Source of the DNA: Escherichia coli
GTDB lineage: Bacteria > Pseudomonadota > Gammaproteobacteria > Enterobacterales > Enterobacteriaceae
Direction: 5' to 3' (one strand)
Assembly (NCBI RefSeq): GCF_002854065.1
Contig: NZ_CP024147.1
DNA: 64,000 nt
Shown: positions 17,164 through 58,197 of the stretch, piece by piece
Layout of the letters: the number at the start of each line of letters is the position of its first letter
Numbering within the stretch: position 1 is the first letter of the stretch
Translations under genes and position numbers: made by a program
The notes under the pieces: model-generated
Database searches by the model: none
Told to the model about the DNA's origin: nothing
Seen by the model: only the letters and a program-made list of their open reading frames with translations

Positions 17164-17174
17164 TGGATTTGCCC

Positions 17175-18080
17175 CTATATTTCCAGACATCTGTTATCAC
17201 TTAACCCATTACAAGCCCGCTGCCGCAGATATTCCCGTGGCGAGCGATAACCCAGCGCACTATGCGGATGCCATTCGTTATAATGCTCGAACGCCTCTGC
17301 AAGGTTCTTTGCTGCCGTTAACCCGTCTGGTTTGGGCATGATACTGATGTAGTCACGCTTTATCGTTTTCACGAAGCTCTCTGCTATTCCGTTACTCTCC
17401 GGACTCCGCACCGCCGTGTTCTTCGGTTCAAGTCCCAACATCCGGGCGAACTGGCGTGTTTCATTAGCCCGGTAGCATGAACCATTATCCGTCAGCCACT
17501 CCACTGGAGACGACGGAAGATCGTTGCCGAAGCGGCGTTCCACCGCTCCCAGCATGACGTCCTGTACTGTTTCACTGTTGAAGCCGCCGGTAGTGACCGC
17601 CCAGTGCAGTGCCTCACGATCACAGCAGTCCAGCGCGAACGTGACACGCAGTCTCTCTCCGTTATCACAGCAGAACTCGAACCCGTCAGAGCACCATCGC
17701 TGATTGCTTTCTTTCACGGCCACTCTGCCTGTATGTGCCCGTTTCGATGGCGGTACAGCAGGTTTTCGCTCAAGCAACAGCGCATTCTGGCGCATGATCC
17801 GGTAAACACGTTTGGCATTGATCGCAGGCATACCATCAAGTTCTGCCTGTCTGCGAAGCAGCGCCCATACCCGACGATAACCATACGTGGGCAGCTCTCC
17901 GATAACATGGTGTATACGGAGAAGCACATCCGTATCATCAGTGTGACGACTGCGGCGGCCATCCATCCAGTCATCGGTTCGTCTGAGAATGACGTGCAAC
18001 TGCGCACGCGACACCCGGAGACAACGGCTGACTAAGCTTACTCCCCATCCCCGGGCAATAAGGGCGCGTGCGCTATCCAC
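17175..18080 (-). CDS. insD: IS2 transposase InsD (OrfB)
   Basis: 301-aa ORF. Confidence 0.9.
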
Positions 18081-18403
18081 TTTTTTGCCCGTCCATATTC
18101 AACGGCTTCTTTGAGGAGTTCATTTTCCATCGTTTTCTTGCCGAGCAGGCGCTGGAGTTCTTTAATCTGCTTCATGGCGGCAGCAAGTTCAGAGGCAGGA
18201 ACAACCTGTTCTCCGGCGGCGACAGCAGTAAGACTTCCTTCCTGGTATTGCTTACGCCAGAGAAATAACTGGCTGGCTGCTACACCATGTTGCCGGGCAA
18301 CGAGGGAGACCGTCATCCCCGGTTCAAAGCTCTGCTGAACAATTGCGATCTTTTCCTGTGTGGTACGCCGTCTGCGTTTCTCCGGCCCTAAGACATCAAT
18401 CAT
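18038..18403 (-). CDS. insC: IS2 transposase InsC (OrfA)
   Basis: 121 aa from [18 protein letters not shown]... Confidence 0.9.
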
Positions 18404-18494
18404 CTGTTCTCCAATGACTAGTCTAAAAACTAGTATTAAGACTATCACTTATTTAAGTGATATTGGTTGTCTGGAGATTCAGGGGGCCAGTCTA

Positions 18495-25985: not shown

Positions 25986-26600
25986 ATGACCCATTTTTCA
26001 CAGCAAGATAATTTTTCTGTCGCGGCGCGCGTGTTGGGCGCGCTGTTTTATTACGCTCCAGAGAGTGCTGAAGCCGCACCTCTGGTTGCGGTACTCACCA
26101 GTGACGGCTGGGAAACTCAGTGGCCTCTACCAGAAGCGTCATTAGCGCCGCTGGTGACGGCTTTTCAGACACAGTGTGAAGAGACTCACGCCCAGGCCTG
26201 GCAGCGTTTGTTTGTCGGCCCGTGGGCACTGCCGTCTCCGCCGTGGGGGTCGGTCTGGCTGGATCGCGAATCTGTGCTGTTTGGCGATTCAACATTGGCA
26301 CTTCGTCAGTGGATGCGCGAGAAAGGCATTCAGTTTGAAATGAAGCAAAACGAACCGGAAGATCATTTTGGTTCACTGCTGTTGATGGCTGCGTGGTTGG
26401 CGGAGAATGGTCGCCAGACAGAATGCGAAGAATTGCTGGCATGGCACCTTTTTCCGTGGTCAACACGTTTTCTTGACGTTTTTATCGAAAAAGCAGAACA
26501 CCCTTTCTACCGCGCACTGGGTGAACTGGCTCGCTTAACGCTGGCGCAATGGCAATCACAACTGTTAATTCCTGTCGCGGTTAAACCGCTGTTTCGATAG
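25986..26600 (+). CDS. dmsD: Tat proofreading chaperone DmsD
   Basis: 204 aa from MTHFSQQDNFS. Confidence 0.9.
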   Translation: MTHFSQQDNFSVAARVLGALFYYAPESAEAAPLVAVLTSDGWETQWPLPEASLAPLVTAFQTQCEETHAQAWQRLFVGPWALPSPPWGSVWLDRESVLFGDSTLALRQWMREKGIQFEMKQNEPEDHFGSLLLMAAWLAENGRQTECEELLAWHLFPWSTRFLDVFIEKAEHPFYRALGELARLTLAQWQSQLLIPVAVKPLFR

Positions 26601-26612
26601 GATCACCGTAAT

Positions 26613-26649
26613 ATTGCCGGATGGTGACGATTACGCGCAATCCGGCAAT
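26613..26649. repeat. REP-like palindrome
   Basis: ATTGCCGGAT-17 nt-ATCCGGCAAT just after the dmsD stop. Confidence 0.3.
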
Positions 26650-26793
26650 AATAGGTTACAGTGTCACGTTTTTTATCTCTTAAAGCACGCACTGCTTTTG
26701 CGGCTGGCCTCTTTTGCCGCAAAATAGTCGCCCGTGTTTCATTGCCCATTTCTGCTCATGCATCATCTACACATCTATCCGGATCTGCGCACT

Positions 26794-28050
26794 ATGTTCC
26801 GCCGTCTGCTTATCGAAACAGTCGTCGGTATTCTCGCGGCCTTTGCCGTTGCCGGGTTTCGTCATGCGATGCTGCTACTGGAGTGGTTGTTCCTCAATAA
26901 TGACTCGGGCAGTCTGGTCAATGCAGCGACAAATCTTTCCCCCTGGCGACGGCTGCTAACTCCGGCGCTCGGCGGACTGGCGGCGGGTTTGTTGTTGATG
27001 GGCTGGCAGAAATTTACCCAGCAACGCCCTCATGCGCCGACCGATTACATGGAAGCGTTGCAAACCGATGGTCAGTTTGATTACGCAGCAAGCCTGGTTA
27101 AATCGCTTGCCTCTCTGCTGGTAGTAACCAGCGGCAGCGCAATTGGTCGCGAAGGTGCGATGATTCTTTTAGCTGCCCTTGCCGCCTCCTGTTTTGCCCA
27201 ACGTTTTACGCCACGCCAGGAGTGGAAATTATGGATCGCCTGTGGGGCCGCGGCGGGAATGGCTGCGGCCTATCGTGCCCCGCTTGCTGGCAGTTTATTT
27301 ATAGCCGAAGTGCTGTTTGGCACTATGATGTTGGCCTCTCTCGGCCCGGTGATTATTTCCGCCGTCGTGGCATTGCTGGTTAGCAATCTGATTAATCATA
27401 GCGACGCGTTACTCTACAGCGTACAACTCTCAGTGACGGTTCAGGCTCGTGACTATGCGCTGATTATCAGTACAGGTGTGCTGGCAGGTCGGTGCGGACC
27501 ACTGTTGTTAACGTTAATGAACGCCTGTCATCGTGGATTTGTGAGTCTCAAACTTGCGCCGCCCTGGCAACTGGCACTAGGCGGGTTGATCGTGGGTCTG
27601 CTTTCCCTGTTCACACCTGCAGTGTGGGGCAACGGCTATAGCACCGTACAATCCTTTTTAACCGCCCCGCCACTGTTAATGATCATTGCCGGGATCTTCC
27701 TTTGTAAACTGTGTGCCGTGCTGGCGAGTAGCGGTTCCGGCGCACCCGGTGGTGTCTTTACACCGACGCTATTTATCGGTCTTGCCATTGGCATGTTGTA
27801 TGGTCGTAGCCTGGGATTATGGTTCCCTGATGGCGAAGAAATTACGCTTTTACTCGGATTGACCGGGATGGCGACACTGTTGGCGGCAACCACGCACGCG
27901 CCGATTATGTCGACGTTGATGATATGTGAAATGACCGGGGAGTATCAGCTACTCCCCGGTTTATTGATTGCCTGCGTAATTGCGTCGGTAATCTCGCGGA
28001 CGTTACACCGTGACTCTATCTACCGCCAGCACACTGCGCAGCATAGCTAA
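26794..28050 (+). CDS. clcB: ClC-family chloride channel/transporter ClcB
   Basis: 418 aa from [12 protein letters not shown]; ORF-track start is extended. Confidence 0.9.
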
Positions 28051-28698
28051 GCGGATGTATTGCCCCAGTTCACGCTGTTCGGCGCGCGGCAGATAAGGCA
28101 GTTCACCAATGAGCGGTGCCGGAAGTTTTTTACCGAGCACATCAATGATTTCCGCATAATGCGCCAGTCCTGGGTTGATTCGGTTAGCCACCCAGCCAAT
28201 GAGCGGCAGCCCGTCGTTGGCAATCGCCTGAGCTGTTAGCAGTGCATGGTTAATGCAACCTTCCTGAATACCGACAACCATCAACACCGGCAGTTGTTCC
28301 TGCACCACCCATTCAGAGAGTGGACGCAAATCATTCATCAGACTACGCCAGCCGCCAGTCCCTTCTACCACGACATGATCGACTTTTTCGGTCAGGTTTG
28401 CCAGGCCGTTTGAAATGAGGGTGTAATTGATTGGGCAACTGTGCGCCACGCTACTTTCTTCTTCGCTTAACGCGATAGGATTAACTGCTTCATAAGGCAG
28501 TTCGATGGTTGAAACACTCTGCAACACCAGGGCATCTTTATTACGCAGCCCTTCGGGTGTCTCTTTGCTCCCCTTCGCTACGGGTTTATATCCCGCAACC
28601 GTTTTTCCCTGGGAGGCTAACGCTTGTAGCAATGCGCGGGAAACCACCGTTTTCCCTACAGAAGTGTCTGTACCGGTAATAAAGAAACGCTTCAGCAT
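28003..28698 (-). CDS. ynfK: dethiobiotin synthetase paralogue YnfK
   Basis: 231 aa from [17 protein letters not shown] (P-loop). Confidence 0.85.
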
Positions 28699-28822
28699 CA
28701 CTAACTCCACCGTTATGCTTCACAAATATAAACCAGGAAAATAATTAACCTTGAAAGTCTAAGTTATGCTTTCCTGGCCCAAATTGAGATAGCGCAAATT
28801 TTGGTAGAACAGTTAAAAAATG

Positions 28823-30043
28823 TTAACCCTGCAACAGACGAATCAACAAAGAACCGTTATACATCGCGTCTTTTACCAGCGCAGCCCCTGCCATCGTGCC
28901 CTGGTTAGAAAACTGAGTACTCTCAACGCTAATGTGCTGACTATACGCAGGAAGGGCCTGCTGACGGATGCTATCTGAGATGACCGGGAAGAGGATATCT
29001 GCCGCTTTACTTAACGGTGAGCCAATCAGTATTTTTTGTGGGTTAAATAAATTCACCATGATGGCAAGAATGCGCCCTACATGCGCGCCCACCCCGGTAA
29101 TGATGTCTTTTGCCAGCAGATCGCCGCGCAATGCCGCCTGACACAATGAGTCCACGGTTAACGGTTGCCCATGTAACATCGAGCTCATGGATTGATTGAG
29201 ACGCAGCTGTGCCAGCTCAAGAATACTGTCCACACTGGCGATGGTTTCGAGGCAGCCGTGGTTCCCGCAATAACAGCGTTTACCATATGGGTCTACCTGT
29301 GTGTGACCTATTTCCACGAGGCTACTGCTGCCTGCGTGTAGCAGATGACCATCGGTAATGACGCCCGCCCCCACGTTGTGATCGATAACCACCTGGATCA
29401 CATCGCGCGCCCCGCGTGAGGCACCAAACAAGGCCTCTGCCATCGTCCATGCGCTGATATCATGCTGAATATAAACCGGAACGCCGGTATGCTGCTCCAG
29501 AGCCTCGCCGAGCGGCATCTCTTTTACATCCTCGTAGAACGGCATGCGATGTACAATGCCATTTTCCGTATCAATAATTCCCGGCAGGGTTATGGCAATC
29601 GAAGTTAGACGCTCAAGTTTTTTCTGGTGGCGGATAAAAAACTGATCGATATGGGAAATGATACGATCCAGCAATGGCGAGTCATCTTTTAACGCCAGTT
29701 CCTGCGACTCTTCCACCACCAGTTTGCTGCTCAGATCGCGCAGAGCAAGGAAAATCTCCCCGCGACTAATGCGCAGAGAAAGATAGTGCCAGGCTTCAGT
29801 TTCAACCACCAGCCCCACCGCCGGACGGCCACGGTTCCCCGCTTCTTTGATTTCCAGCTCTTGTACCAAGTGTGCTTCGAGCATCTCACGGACAATTTTA
29901 GTGATACTGGCAGGAGCCAGCTGCGCCAGACGGGAAAGATCGATACGCGAGACTGGACCAAGCTGATCAATCAGGCGATAAACCGCGCCCGCGTTGGTCT
30001 GCTTTATTTGATCAATGTGCCCAGGCTGGTTTTCAGCAACCAC
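28823..30043 (-). CDS. mlc: ROK-family global regulator Mlc (DgsA)
   Basis: 406-aa ORF; GTG start. Confidence 0.9.
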   Translation of the reverse strand: MVAENQPGHIDQIKQTNAGAVYRLIDQLGPVSRIDLSRLAQLAPASITKIVREMLEAHLVQELEIKEAGNRGRPAVGLVVETEAWHYLSLRISRGEIFLALRDLSSKLVVEESQELALKDDSPLLDRIISHIDQFFIRHQKKLERLTSIAITLPGIIDTENGIVHRMPFYEDVKEMPLGEALEQHTGVPVYIQHDISAWTMAEALFGASRGARDVIQVVIDHNVGAGVITDGHLLHAGSSSLVEIGHTQVDPYGKRCYCGNHGCLETIASVDSILELAQLRLNQSMSSMLHGQPLTVDSLCQAALRGDLLAKDIITGVGAHVGRILAIMVNLFNPQKILIGSPLSKAADILFPVISDSIRQQALPAYSQHISVESTQFSNQGTMAGAALVKDAMYNGSLLIRLLQG

Positions 30044-42454: not shown

Positions 42455-43177
42455 ATGGGTAAAACCCAGCCCTTGCCAATATTAATTACTGGCGGAGGTC
42501 GTCGCATCGGCCTCGCCCTTGCATGGCATTTCATTAATCAAAAGCAACCGGTGATTGTCAGCTATCGGACACACTATCCAGCCATTGATGGACTGATTAA
42601 TGCAGGTGCGCAGTGTATTCAGGCTGATTTTTCGACCAACGACGGTGTGATGGCGTTTGCCGATGAAGTACTAAAAAGCACCCATGGTCTGCGTGCTATT
42701 TTGCATAACGCCAGTGCGTGGATGGCGGAAAAACCGGGTGCGCCACTGGCCGACGTACTGGCTTGCATGATGCAGATCCACGTTAATACCCCATACCTGC
42801 TCAACCATGCGCTGGAAAGATTACTGCGTGGGCACGGACACGCCGCCAGCGATATCATTCACTTTACCGATTATGTGGTGGAGCGCGGTAGCGACAAGCA
42901 TATTGCGTATGCTGCAAGCAAAGCGGCACTGGATAATATGACCCGCTCGTTTGCCCGCAAGCTGGCACCGGAAGTGAAAGTGAATTCTATTGCGCCATCG
43001 CTGATCCTGTTTAATGAACATGATGATGCCGAATATCGACAACAGGCGCTGAATAAATCACTGATGAAAACCGCGCCTGGCGAGAAAGAAGTGATCGACC
43101 TGGTCGATTACTTACTTACCAGTTGCTTTGTCACCGGACGCAGTTTCCCACTTGATGGCGGTCGTCATCTGCGTTAA
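42455..43177 (+). CDS. folM: dihydromonapterin reductase FolM (SDR)
   Basis: 240-aa ORF with Rossmann motif TGGGRRIG. Confidence 0.85.
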   Translation: MGKTQPLPILITGGGRRIGLALAWHFINQKQPVIVSYRTHYPAIDGLINAGAQCIQADFSTNDGVMAFADEVLKSTHGLRAILHNASAWMAEKPGAPLADVLACMMQIHVNTPYLLNHALERLLRGHGHAASDIIHFTDYVVERGSDKHIAYAASKAALDNMTRSFARKLAPEVKVNSIAPSLILFNEHDDAEYRQQALNKSLMKTAPGEKEVIDLVDYLLTSCFVTGRSFPLDGGRHLR

Positions 43178-45704: not shown

Positions 45705-48067
<2,363 letters not shown>

Positions 48068-52883: not shown

Positions 52884-54149
52884 TTACTTCAGCATAAAGT
52901 CATACTGAATACTCATTTTCACATCCCAGTAATTCAGGCGATCGCCCAGCACACTGCCATCGCGCTTTTCCCCCCCTTTATCGGCAGCAAGAAAGAAATT
53001 CATCCCTTGTAACGGCCCTTCGCTGACCCGATAGTTCATACCACCTAAGATACCCGCGCCTTCAATCCGCACATCTCGTTTACTGGATTCATAGCCGCGA
53101 GTCACAATCGGTGCAAATGTCAGTGTAAATTGCGGCGTTAAACGATAGTTGACGCCCAATTGCCAGGACTGCATTCCTTCACGGTTACGATAAAGACTTA
53201 ATGAAAAGGGATAGCCAATGTCGGTATCCACCACGGCACCATTCATTGCATGGCGCAAATAACCACCACTGCCAAATACGCTTCCCCACGGCGCATTCCA
53301 GGTCAATTGTCCACTAACCAACGCCGTTTCATTGGGCTGACTGGTATTACGACTTAAACCTTCGAGCTGCGCGTAAAAGCCGAGCAACTCCCCTTTCAAC
53401 GTATAATTCGGGTCGAGCGGTATGCTTTTCTCGAGAATACTTTGTATCTGATTGGAAACATCTTTCTGTACCGATGCCCCCAGAGAATAGCGACTGGTAT
53501 CATCATGCCAACTGGCGGCTAAAAAAGAACGTGCGCGATGTTTATCGTATTTTCCCGTCTGGCTGTTATAAACCCCTTCATCACGAATACCGGTTGTTGA
53601 ATCGGTCCATAAAAATACTCGTGAACGCCACATTCCCCACAGATCAATATTTGGCGTTAACGCCCAATAACCTAATGCTCCTTCAGAAACTGTCGGTAAT
53701 GTACGTTGCGAACTGCCAGCCATTAACGGAATACGATAAGGTAAGCTACCATAACTATAATCCGTCCCGAAGCGACCTAATTTAAGCTGGCTATTTTCAC
53801 TGGGTTTTATTTTTACTGCCCCCAGGGCAAAGCCAAAACTTTTATCACCATCAAGATACCACCGGGTACTCATATCAGCACGAGCACCTAATTTATAAAC
53901 ATAATACGCTCCGCCTTCAACGCCAATAATATTGGAATAATAACCACTATTGAAATCGAGCAATCCTCCCTGTACCCATGCGTAAATATCTCTTCCCGCG
54001 CCAGCACTGGGCTTATCCGCCCTGCGCAATTCGTTTTTCAGTCTGATGCGTAGTCCCGCTTCATCGTCAGCCAGTTGCGCCGCGTAAGCAGAGGTAAGGC
54101 CAGAGGCAGCCGTCAGGCAAATAACGGCCATGGCCACTATTTTTCTCAT
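52884..54149 (-). CDS. uidC: outer membrane glucuronide porin-like protein UidC
   Basis: 421-aa ORF with signal peptide. Confidence 0.85.
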   Translation of the reverse strand: MRKIVAMAVICLTAASGLTSAYAAQLADDEAGLRIRLKNELRRADKPSAGAGRDIYAWVQGGLLDFNSGYYSNIIGVEGGAYYVYKLGARADMSTRWYLDGDKSFGFALGAVKIKPSENSQLKLGRFGTDYSYGSLPYRIPLMAGSSQRTLPTVSEGALGYWALTPNIDLWGMWRSRVFLWTDSTTGIRDEGVYNSQTGKYDKHRARSFLAASWHDDTSRYSLGASVQKDVSNQIQSILEKSIPLDPNYTLKGELLGFYAQLEGLSRNTSQPNETALVSGQLTWNAPWGSVFGSGGYLRHAMNGAVVDTDIGYPFSLSLYRNREGMQSWQLGVNYRLTPQFTLTFAPIVTRGYESSKRDVRIEGAGILGGMNYRVSEGPLQGMNFFLAADKGGEKRDGSVLGDRLNYWDVKMSIQYDFMLK

Positions 54150-54187
54150 AGTTGCACCTTTGATGTTCTGATTATTTTTATTGAATA

Positions 54188-54323
54188 TTAATTAGTGATA
54201 TCGCTGATTAATTGCTGCTGCACTTTTTTACGATTATCAATTTCAACCACGATTTCTTTGAATTTTTTATCCGTGAGCGGATAAAACCAGATAATGACGA
54301 ATGCCAGTAACATAAATCCGCAA
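54188..54323 (-). pseudogene. uidB: uidB 3' fragment (separated by IS1)
   Basis: Encodes ...[44 protein letters not shown] in the same frame as the upstream part once IS1 and its duplication are removed. Confidence 0.7.
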
Positions 54324-54338
54324 GGTAATGACTCCAAC

Positions 54339-54842
54339 TTATTGATAGTGTTTTATGTTCAGATAATGCCCGATGACTTTGTCATGCAGCTCCACCGATT
54401 TTGAGAACGACAGCGACTTCCGTCCCAGCCGTGCCAGGTGCTGCCTCAGATTCAGGTTATGCCGCTCAATTCGCTGCGTATATCGCTTGCTGATTACGTG
54501 CAGCTTTCCCTTCAGGCGGGATTCATACAGCGGCCAGCCATCCGTCATCCATATCACCACGTCAAAGGGTGACAGCAGGCTCATAAGACGCCCCAGCGTC
54601 GCCATAGTGCGTTCACCGAATACGTGCGCAACAACCGTCTTCCGGAGCCTGTCATACGCGTAAAACAGCCAGCGCTGGCGCGATTTAGCCCCGACGTATC
54701 CCCACTGTTCGTCCATTTCCGCGCAGACGATGACGTCACTGCCCGGCTGTATGCGCGAGGTTACCGACTGCGGCCTGAGTTTTTTAAATGGCGGAAAATC
54801 GTGTTGAGGCCAACGCCCATAATGCGGGCGGTTGCCCGGCAT
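54339..54842 (-). CDS. insB: IS1 transposase InsB
   Basis: 167-aa ORF. Confidence 0.9.
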
Positions 54843-55036
54843 CCAACGCCATTCATGGCCATATCAATGATTTTCTGGTGCGTACCGGGTTGAGAAGCGG
54901 TGTAAGTGAACTGCAGTTGCCATGTTTTACGGCAGTGAGAGCAGAGATAGCGCTGATGTCCGGCAGTGCTTTTGCCGTTACGCACCACCCCGTCAGTAGC
55001 TGAACAGGAGGGACAGCTGATAGAAACAGAAGCCAC
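54761..55036 (-). CDS. insA: IS1 InsA
   Basis: 91-aa ORF; A-run frameshift window at the insA/insB overlap. Confidence 0.9.
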
Positions 55037-55091
55037 TGGAGCACCTCAAAAACACCATCATACACTAAATCAGTAAGTTGGCAGCATCACC

Positions 55092-58197
<3,106 letters not shown>

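Follow-up and report, generated by a model that had tools for sequence, protein, structure and literature searches.

The convergent coding overlap of clcB and ynfK in Escherichia coli and related Enterobacteriaceae, with a candidate ynfK 3' stem-loop inside clcB

Excludons and overlapping 3' untranslated regions (UTRs), known from Listeria and other bacteria, are arrangements in which a transcript extends antisense into the convergent neighboring gene. Overlaps between the coding sequences of convergent genes were surveyed by Palleja et al. 2008, in whose collection this orientation accounts for 7% of the well-characterized overlaps (PMC2478687). Those authors, who cite Rogozin et al. 2002 on conserved convergent overlapping pairs, describe convergent overlaps as arising by 3' extension or compaction and as free of start-codon annotation errors. 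A further known class consists of Rho-dependent transcripts that end just past stable stem-loops without a U tract, as described by Dar and Sorek (PMC6061677). The interlocked stop codons of clcB and ynfK and the hairpin embedded in clcB are instances of these known kinds, and a literature search found no paper on either feature.

The window analyzed here is a stretch of 64,000 nucleotides of E. coli DNA. It contains clcB at positions 26794..28050 on the + strand, which encodes 418 amino acids when counted from the K-12 start; this reading follows the open reading frame (ORF) list and the K-12 and strain CUWW06 annotations, with the PGAP start placed at 26758. The convergent gene ynfK, whose current name in K-12 RefSeq is bidA (b1593), lies at 28003..28698 on the − strand according to the ORF list and the annotation and encodes 231 amino acids. 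The original prediction placed a convergent 48-bp overlap of the two genes at 28003-28050, and this is borne out by the ORF list, the raw sequence, and K-12 RefSeq. The prediction is also right on gene identities, strands, coordinates, and stop codons, all of which agree with RefSeq. In K-12 MG1655 (NC_000913.3), clcB extends over 1665315..1666571 and bidA over 1666524..1667219, leaving 48 bp common to both, and the PGAP annotation of strain CUWW06 shows the same clcB and ynfK ends, so that both stop codons match the reference annotations against which they were checked. An earlier true stop in either gene, which would speak against the overlap, is absent: the six-frame ORF list and the raw sequence contain no earlier in-frame stop in the clcB frame and none in the ynfK frame. 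The overlap is thus already part of the public reference annotation.

The shared 48 bp (28003..28050, both strands) encode ClcB residues 404 to 418 plus the stop codon on the + strand and YnfK residues 217 to 231 plus the stop codon on the − strand, as can be seen from the sequence, the ORFs, the K-12 annotation, and the alignments. Read in antisense register, the two frames have position 2 of each codon opposite position 2 and position 1 opposite position 3, and because of this register each of the two stop codons stands opposite a leucine codon of the partner gene. The ynfK stop codon TAA (28003..28005, − strand) is the complement of the clcB Leu404 codon TTA, as found in the sequence and the alignments, and the clcB stop codon TAA (28048..28050, + strand) is the complement of the YnfK Leu217 codon TTA, as found in the sequence and the per-codon table. 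In the preferred reading, clcB and ynfK are packed closely enough for a short segment of each to be read in the same codon register on opposite strands. The interlock with leucine codons fixes the position of the ynfK stop, while the clcB stop is found one codon earlier in Citrobacter and Salmonella.

Within the species, the locus is close to universal. Among 5,426 complete E. coli genomes, 5,421 carry a match to a 2.2-kb probe and 5,420 a match to a 96-bp probe spanning the junction, with both clcB and ynfK annotated at the junction in all cases among the matches listed. Beyond E. coli, a ClcB scan with one genome per species yielded 19 loci, in each of which both frames were extended to their stops; further genera were added through YnfK homologues and their contigs. 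The resulting aligned set of clcB-bearing sequences comprises 23 members, namely, the window, K-12, and 21 loci from other species or genera. A 48-bp overlap is found in Escherichia whittamii, E. albertii, and other Escherichia lineages, in Cedecea and its allies, and in Entomohabitans, as well as in Klebsiella oxytoca, Buttiauxella, Kluyvera, Raoultella, and Scandinavium. Citrobacter and Salmonella arizonae show an overlap of 45 bp, their ClcB being one residue shorter with the stop one codon earlier. About ten named genera of the Enterobacteriaceae thus preserve an overlap of 45 to 48 bp. Each stop lies opposite a leucine codon of the partner in most of these genera, and the ynfK stop stands opposite ClcB Leu404 in all 23 aligned sequences, as TAA with TTA or as TAG with CTA. 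TGA occurs as the ynfK stop in none of the 23 aligned clcB-bearing sequences. Across the same loci, YnfK is 84 to 98% identical, compared to 55 to 93% for ClcB, and the most distant overlap-bearing loci show a ClcB identity of only 55 to 66%.

Some lineages retain ynfK without a functional clcB partner. In-frame stops interrupt clcB in Citrobacter sp. NCU1 and Awk 4, and ynfK and its tail are intact there. Kosakonia, Trabulsiella, and Pseudescherichia have no clcB downstream of ynfK; ynfK is followed by an ABC transporter in Kosakonia, by a DUF1161 gene in Trabulsiella, and by ABC transporter genes in Pseudescherichia vulneris. The pairing of clcB and ynfK is dispensable, since clcB has been lost in three genera and has decayed in two Citrobacter strains with ynfK unchanged.

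An overlap of this kind may also arise from misannotation, with one of the genes ending earlier or in another frame and the coding overlap not being real. This explanation draws on the observation that the long convergent overlaps found in databases frequently stem from mis-extended 3' ends (PMC2478687) and on the YnfK tail, which lies past the solved BioD fold in a region of low model confidence. It is opposed by the lack of an earlier stop in either frame, by the identical ends in K-12 RefSeq, in PGAP, and in the annotation among the matches listed (5,420 genomes matched), and by stop positions kept across about ten named genera. The length of the YnfK tail and its Asp-Arg pair persist in genomes without clcB, and a conserved tyrosine of ClcB lies within the overlap. 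An annotation artefact is accordingly very improbable, and the clcB-ynfK overlap is in all likelihood a genuine and ancient tail-to-tail overlap of two real genes.

Compared with the pairs of Palleja et al. (PMC2478687), clcB and ynfK are likewise two real genes with their 3' ends in common on opposite strands. Both ORFs have homologues, each stop lies inside the partner gene, and the overlap is conserved in other species; on these sequence comparisons, the pair belongs with the conserved convergent overlaps already known. Translation of both overlapping C termini is indirectly supported by the conservation of the two tails. Two differences stand out: at 48 bp, the overlap falls below the 60-bp "long" class of that survey, and it is kept in many genera, whereas the long real overlaps reported there are mostly confined to very close species.

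The length of the overlap can be compared with chance expectation. In this antisense register, a stop codon requires TTA, CTA, or TCA as the sense codon, and these make up 2.6% of the 16,132 codons of 49 neighboring genes. From this frequency, 15 open antisense codons are expected with a P of about 0.68, and convergent penetration by at least 15 codons is possible in 63% of the 49 genes. By itself, an antisense frame that stays open this far is unremarkable. What goes beyond chance, as judged from the alignments, is the placement of the overlap and its conservation between genera. The equivalent 64 kb of strain CUWW06 contains about a dozen convergent pairs, three of which overlap: folM/ydgC by 4 bp, tus/fumC by 4 bp, and clcB/ynfK by 48 bp.

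ClcB is a paralogue in the CLC family of Cl-/H+ transporters and matches ClcA structures with E values of about 1e-25. In a structure alignment with the Salmonella ClcA structure 1kpl, residue 410 of ClcB pairs with residue 445. ClcA Tyr445 is the conserved central tyrosine of CLC proteins, and ClcB Tyr410 (codon TAC at 28021..28023 on the + strand, antisense to the YnfK Val226 codon GTA according to the 1kpl alignment and the per-codon table), which lies inside the overlap, is by alignment its counterpart. The alignment reaches the central tyrosine in both proteins; ClcB continues for 8 residues past it, compared to 28 residues in the 473-residue ClcA chains. The eight residues following Tyr410 of ClcB are variable among the aligned loci.

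YnfK is a paralogue of the dethiobiotin synthetase BioD and matches E. coli BioD (1a82) over residues 3 to 220 with an E value of 3e-65. As BioD (224 amino acids) ends opposite YnfK residue 220, residues 221 to 231 (28006..28038, − strand) form a tail past the BioD fold, giving YnfK 11 additional C-terminal residues. The shared stretch would accordingly combine this family-specific 11-residue tail and the last four residues of the BioD-like fold on one strand with the C-terminal stub of ClcB around the tyrosine on the other. Among the best 120 YnfK homologues, 92 have a length of 231 amino acids with a [VIA]-D-R-x-x-A end, and the conservation of Asp227 and of Arg228 is 90% or higher. An AlphaFold2 model of YnfK, built on a shallow alignment of 24 sequences, has a mean pLDDT of 70.5 and runs the last helix to residue 227 with low confidence; the pLDDT of the tail is 55 for residues 221 to 230 and below 50 for residues 227 to 231. 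A literature search found no paper on the clcB-ynfK overlap or on the YnfK tail, and the text matches for ynfK and clcB in PMC4448311 and PMC12844172 proved to be table entries unrelated to the overlap.

The tail of YnfK could be regarded as a neutral extension by read-through, an antisense shadow of the constrained ClcB C terminus, with selection in the shared 48 bp acting on clcB only. This would fit the absence of the tail from BioD, the variability of most tail positions, the low AlphaFold confidence, and the correspondence of Val or Ile at YnfK position 226 with ClcB Tyr410. The genera without clcB give a different picture: Kosakonia (Kosakonia/Phytobacter), Trabulsiella, and Pseudescherichia keep a YnfK of 231 amino acids with the Asp227-Arg228 end and no clcB opposite, and the antisense frame opposite the tail, which was translated for Kosakonia alone among the three, contains a stop in that genus. 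The tail is also intact opposite the clcB pseudogene of the two Citrobacter strains. On the clcB side, the codon of ClcB Ser408 is TCT or TCG and never TCA in the 20 Ser-bearing sequences (Buttiauxella has Thr), and TCA at this site, though synonymous for ClcB, would place a TGA at YnfK codon 228. A tail shaped by selection on clcB alone is unlikely on these grounds. The comparison across genera suggests instead that the YnfK tail has a function, and both C termini in the overlap look genuine.

The original prediction also held that the overlap constrains both C termini, a claim that is supported by the comparison of genera with and without clcB; the constraint is light. The ynfK stop is TGA in two of the three clcB-less genera, compared to 0 of the 23 clcB-bearing sequences. 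YnfK residue 226 is Val or Ile (GTA or ATA) opposite ClcB Tyr410 (TAC or TAT) at all clcB-bearing loci but that of Entomohabitans, where Arg replaces Tyr410 of ClcB. In the clcB-less genera, the same residue is Ala in Kosakonia and Pseudescherichia and Val in Trabulsiella. A change of the clcB Gln412 codon from CAG to TAG, found naturally in strain E69, is synonymous in ynfK (Leu CTG to CTA). Entropy at codon position 2 averages 0.41 in the overlap versus 0.13 in the adjacent 40 codons of clcB and 0.08 in those of ynfK. The reading of the overlap as unusually conserved DNA was rejected, as codon positions 1 and 2 are more variable there than in the flanking gene bodies. Mutual constraint is mild by these measures, and the shared stretch holds the most tolerant residues of both proteins, whose tails vary more than any other part of them; the coding overlap would be tolerated because both tails are permissive.

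There is no intergenic DNA between clcB and ynfK and hence no intergenic terminator, which places the signal for the ynfK transcript end inside clcB. A 3' terminus of ynfK has been mapped in K-12 to position 1666447 on the − strand (peak 1666442-1666455) and classed as "Primary" (PMC10687069, Supplementary Data 2), with p values of 4e-15, 4e-9, and 2e-11 in three replicates (PMC10687069; the dataset sheet is not certain). With an offset of 1638521 between K-12 and window coordinates, this terminus corresponds to position 27926. The 3' UTR of ynfK defined by it (27926..28002, − strand) is 77 nt long and wholly antisense to clcB codons 378 to 403; the mRNA ends 77 nt past the stop codon and 8 nt past the last paired base of the stem-loop described below. 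The terminus at 1666447 is absent from the curated Term-seq list of PMC7815308. That study reports a Rho-dependent termination region with its peak at K-12 1666514, corresponding to 27993 on the − strand, 10 nt past the ynfK stop (PMC7815308, Supplementary file 2), and classes it as "primary" for ynfK and "antisense" to clcB. Without the Rho inhibitor bicyclomycin (BCM), 85 reads lie upstream and 11 downstream of this region, compared to 292 upstream and 159 downstream with BCM (Rho score of 4.2; p = 1.5e-6; PMC7815308), the 3'-end and BCM data both coming from K-12 grown aerobically, when the FNR-activated ynfK is weakly expressed. Read-through past ynfK thus rises under Rho inhibition according to the published counts. 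For clcB, no 3' terminus was found in the datasets of PMC10687069 and PMC7815308, and a search for a + strand stem-loop inside ynfK that could mark the clcB end gave best local folds that differ in place between genera, with none being consistent.

A pattern scan locates a 12-bp hairpin at 27933-27961 within clcB. In the ynfK RNA, the stem-loop reads ACCGGGGAGUA-GCUGA-UACUCCCCGGU (27934..27960, − strand) and is identified by the terminator-like scan, the fold z-score, conservation, covariation, and codon bias. Its stem is spelled by the clcB codons for Thr381-Gly382-Glu383 (ACC GGG GAG) and Leu387-Pro388-Gly389 (CTC CCC GGT). The local hairpin has a folding energy of about -21.5 kcal/mol, and the ynfK 3' UTR, folded as a segment of 91 nt, reaches -28.8 kcal/mol with a z of -4.4. 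The RNA after the stem is CAUUUCAC, which has three U on the − strand and no U-rich tract. A canonical intrinsic terminator combines a G+C-rich hairpin with at least five U in 8 nt; the ynfK hairpin is not such a terminator because the U tract is missing on the − strand, and the terminator scan called no site on this strand. An Rfam search over 26500-29000 gave nothing above the gathering score, the best hit being SR6_antitoxin with 23 bits versus a threshold of 55 bits (E = 0.59).

Conservation of the pairing was followed across the 23 aligned sequences. The stem is paired in 90% of the cells, compared to 28 to 47% when the partner strand is slid. The 8-bp core comprises 169 cells with Watson-Crick pairs, 11 with G.U pairs on the ynfK strand only, 3 with G.U pairs on the clcB strand only, and 1 unpaired cell; these counts, like those for codon bias, are inflated by the relatedness of the sequences. 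In Klebsiella, Kluyvera, Raoultella, and Scandinavium, the Glu codon GAG is changed to a Gln codon CAR together with a change of Leu CTC to CTG, turning a G-C pair into a C-G pair; this swap probably represents a single evolutionary event in one clade. As the compensatory swap is one event, the covariation support rests mainly on the codon bias and the G.U asymmetry. In Entomohabitans, the stem is degraded.

The codons that spell the stem are rare ones. Pro388 is encoded by CCC in 22 of 22 sequences, compared to 19.5% of the Pro codons in the same genes. At Gly382, 17 of 23 sequences use GGG versus a background of 22%, and four of the other six have GGA, which gives a G.U pair on the ynfK strand. 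For Leu387, CTC is the codon in 17 of the 19 sequences with Glu, versus a background of 11%; CTG is found in none of these 19, though it makes up 51% of the Leu codons of these clcB genes. The synonymous sites next to the stem codons vary freely. Codon choice is the stronger signal of selection in these alignments than covariation, and the two together indicate selection on the hairpin through synonymous sites of clcB. It is likely that selection on clcB codons 381 to 389 maintains two things at once, the CLC motif TGE..LPG and the stem-loop at the 3' end of the ynfK mRNA. The reading of the + strand hairpin at 27933-27961 as an attenuator internal to clcB was rejected as the main interpretation, since its T-rich tail is found in E. 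coli only and the G.U pattern favors the RNA of the − strand.

The end of the ynfK transcript resembles the class described by Dar and Sorek (PMC6061677) in that a precise 3' end follows a stem-loop without a U tract and a BCM-sensitive region is found there. It differs from that class in the location of the stem-loop inside the coding sequence of a convergent gene, in a conserved CLC motif, and in its maintenance through rare synonymous codons of clcB. On this comparison, the ynfK RNA end would belong to the stem-loop-protected, Rho-dependent 3' ends, with the protective role itself being inferred. In the proposed mechanism, Rho would curtail ynfK transcription past the stem-loop, and the stem-loop would most likely either shield the Rho-released ynfK RNA from 3'-5' exonucleases or act as a weak intrinsic terminator. 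In Kosakonia, which lacks clcB, a textbook terminator with a hairpin and a T run lies 1 nt past the ynfK stop. In Trabulsiella, a CCGGGCAG/CTGCCCGG hairpin aligns with the clcB-embedded one; this alignment is suggestive only, and the hairpin may be a remnant of the embedded stem-loop.

Over its final 125 nt (27926-28050), clcB lies antisense to the ynfK mRNA, and interference of this RNA with clcB, as raised by the original prediction, is only a possibility. An extended form of this idea sees the locus as an excludon-like module in which anaerobic, FNR-driven ynfK transcription, covering the terminal 125 nt of clcB, lowers ClcB by polymerase collision or cleavage of the RNA duplex, with the arrangement being conserved for this reason. 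FNR directly activates ynfK (PMC3688515). The ynfK RNA has been mapped antisense over clcB codons 378 to 418, BCM extends read-through into clcB, and the arrangement is kept between genera. As in excludons, the ynfK transcript enters a convergent gene in the antisense direction; unlike in excludons, its antisense reach is only 125 nt and the functions of clcB and ynfK are not obviously opposed. The antisense RNA is held to the last 10% of clcB by Rho and the stem-loop, and the loss of clcB in three genera and its decay in two Citrobacter strains left ynfK unchanged, which marks the pairing as dispensable. The stability of the ynfK mRNA alone would account for the conservation of the hairpin. 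A literature search found no expression data linking clcB and ynfK and no data on their reciprocal expression. Conservation of the overlap as an excludon-like module is doubtful on this balance, and a genuine overlap with a ynfK 3' stem-loop under selection inside clcB is the preferred reading. As a separate observation, an FNR-like motif TTGCG-N4-CTCAA lies upstream of ynfK at 28784-28797, a candidate site read from the sequence only.

As first described, the overlap is a matter of textbook annotation that alters nothing. There is a small chance that ClcB output in anaerobiosis is tuned by FNR-induced ynfK transcription through the final 125 nt of clcB; if true, this candidate regulation would explain an overlap frozen across the Enterobacteriaceae. 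For work on either gene, deleting clcB or ynfK together with 28003-28050 truncates the partner gene, and a "silent" recoding of clcB codons 381 to 389, Ser408, or Gln412 would not be silent for ynfK. The locus offers a worked example of convergent genes without a spacer, in which the stop codons are interlocked with leucine codons, the shared stretch holds the least constrained residues of both proteins, and the mRNA end signal of ynfK is likely to be kept inside clcB through rare synonymous codons.

The gene clcB of Escherichia coli strain E69 (locus L009), a separate GTDB species representative, carries a premature TAG at codon Gln412, directly 3' of the conserved Tyr-Arg. The change is silent in ynfK, where the Leu codon CTG becomes CTA, and cuts the coding overlap of the two convergent genes to 27 bp. 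Citrobacter sp. NCU1 (L021) and Citrobacter sp. Awk 4 (L020) contain in-frame stops in clcB, which is recognisable only in its 3' part and is therefore likely a pseudogene in both; the overlapping ynfK is intact in these strains, with a full-length tail. Kosakonia (L023), Trabulsiella (L028) and Pseudescherichia vulneris (L029) possess ynfK in the absence of clcB, and YnfK still measures 231 amino acids in these genera. Where the two proteins are compared across one set of genomes (L003-L019), whole-gene identity amounts to 84-98% for YnfK, compared to 55-93% for ClcB. Conservation so far above that of its partner is surprising in a supposed back-up paralogue of BioD.

The ynfK RNA contains a conserved stem-loop (window 27934-27960, minus strand), which lies inside clcB codons 381-389, 42 nt downstream of the ynfK stop, and is maintained by the rare synonymous clcB codons GGG, CTC and CCC. 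A published map places the 3' end of the ynfK mRNA at window position 27926, 8 nt 3' of this structure (PMC10687069). Kosakonia features a bidirectional-looking intrinsic terminator immediately 3' of the ynfK stop. The hairpin following the ynfK stop in Trabulsiella, CCGGGCAG/CTGCCCGG, can be aligned with the hairpin that Klebsiella-type genomes carry inside clcB, of which it may be a remnant.

Two further convergent overlaps of 4 bp each are found in the window, folM/ydgC at ~43174-43177 and tus/fumC at ~46664-46667; these positions are approximate, being transferred from the annotation of strain CUWW06 (L031, 10880-10883 and 14370-14373, respectively). Relative to CUWW06, the window shows a 1,331-bp insertion at 17164-18494 with a duplicated 5-bp target, whose two ORFs (HTH_Tnp_1 and an rve integrase core) identify it as an IS3-family element of IS2 size. 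The insertion breaks ynfC (UPF0257), of whose 236 profile positions only the first 148 remain. The OprD-like porin gene at the uidC position, cut short by IS1 in CUWW06, is intact in the window (421 amino acids) and forms a 52887-55092 segment with an adjoining IS1 copy (54324-55092). A further difference from CUWW06 is seen in the part of the window upstream of ~12500.

Upstream of clcB, two published 3' termini are located at K-12 1665172 (dmsD primary; window 26651) and K-12 1665250 (classed as clcB 5' UTR; window 26729). The latter, 65 nt 5' of the clcB ATG, comes after a hairpin, TTTTGCGGC...GCCGCAAAA (26696-26724). These termini and the hairpin raise the possibility that clcB is shielded from the ynfEFGH-dmsD operon or is subject to attenuation. 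Upstream of ynfK, the FNR-box-like motif TTGCG-N4-CTCAA (28784-28797, minus strand) shares 7 of 10 positions with the FNR box TTGAT-N4-ATCAA, and such a candidate site is consistent with the published direct activation of ynfK by FNR (PMC3688515).
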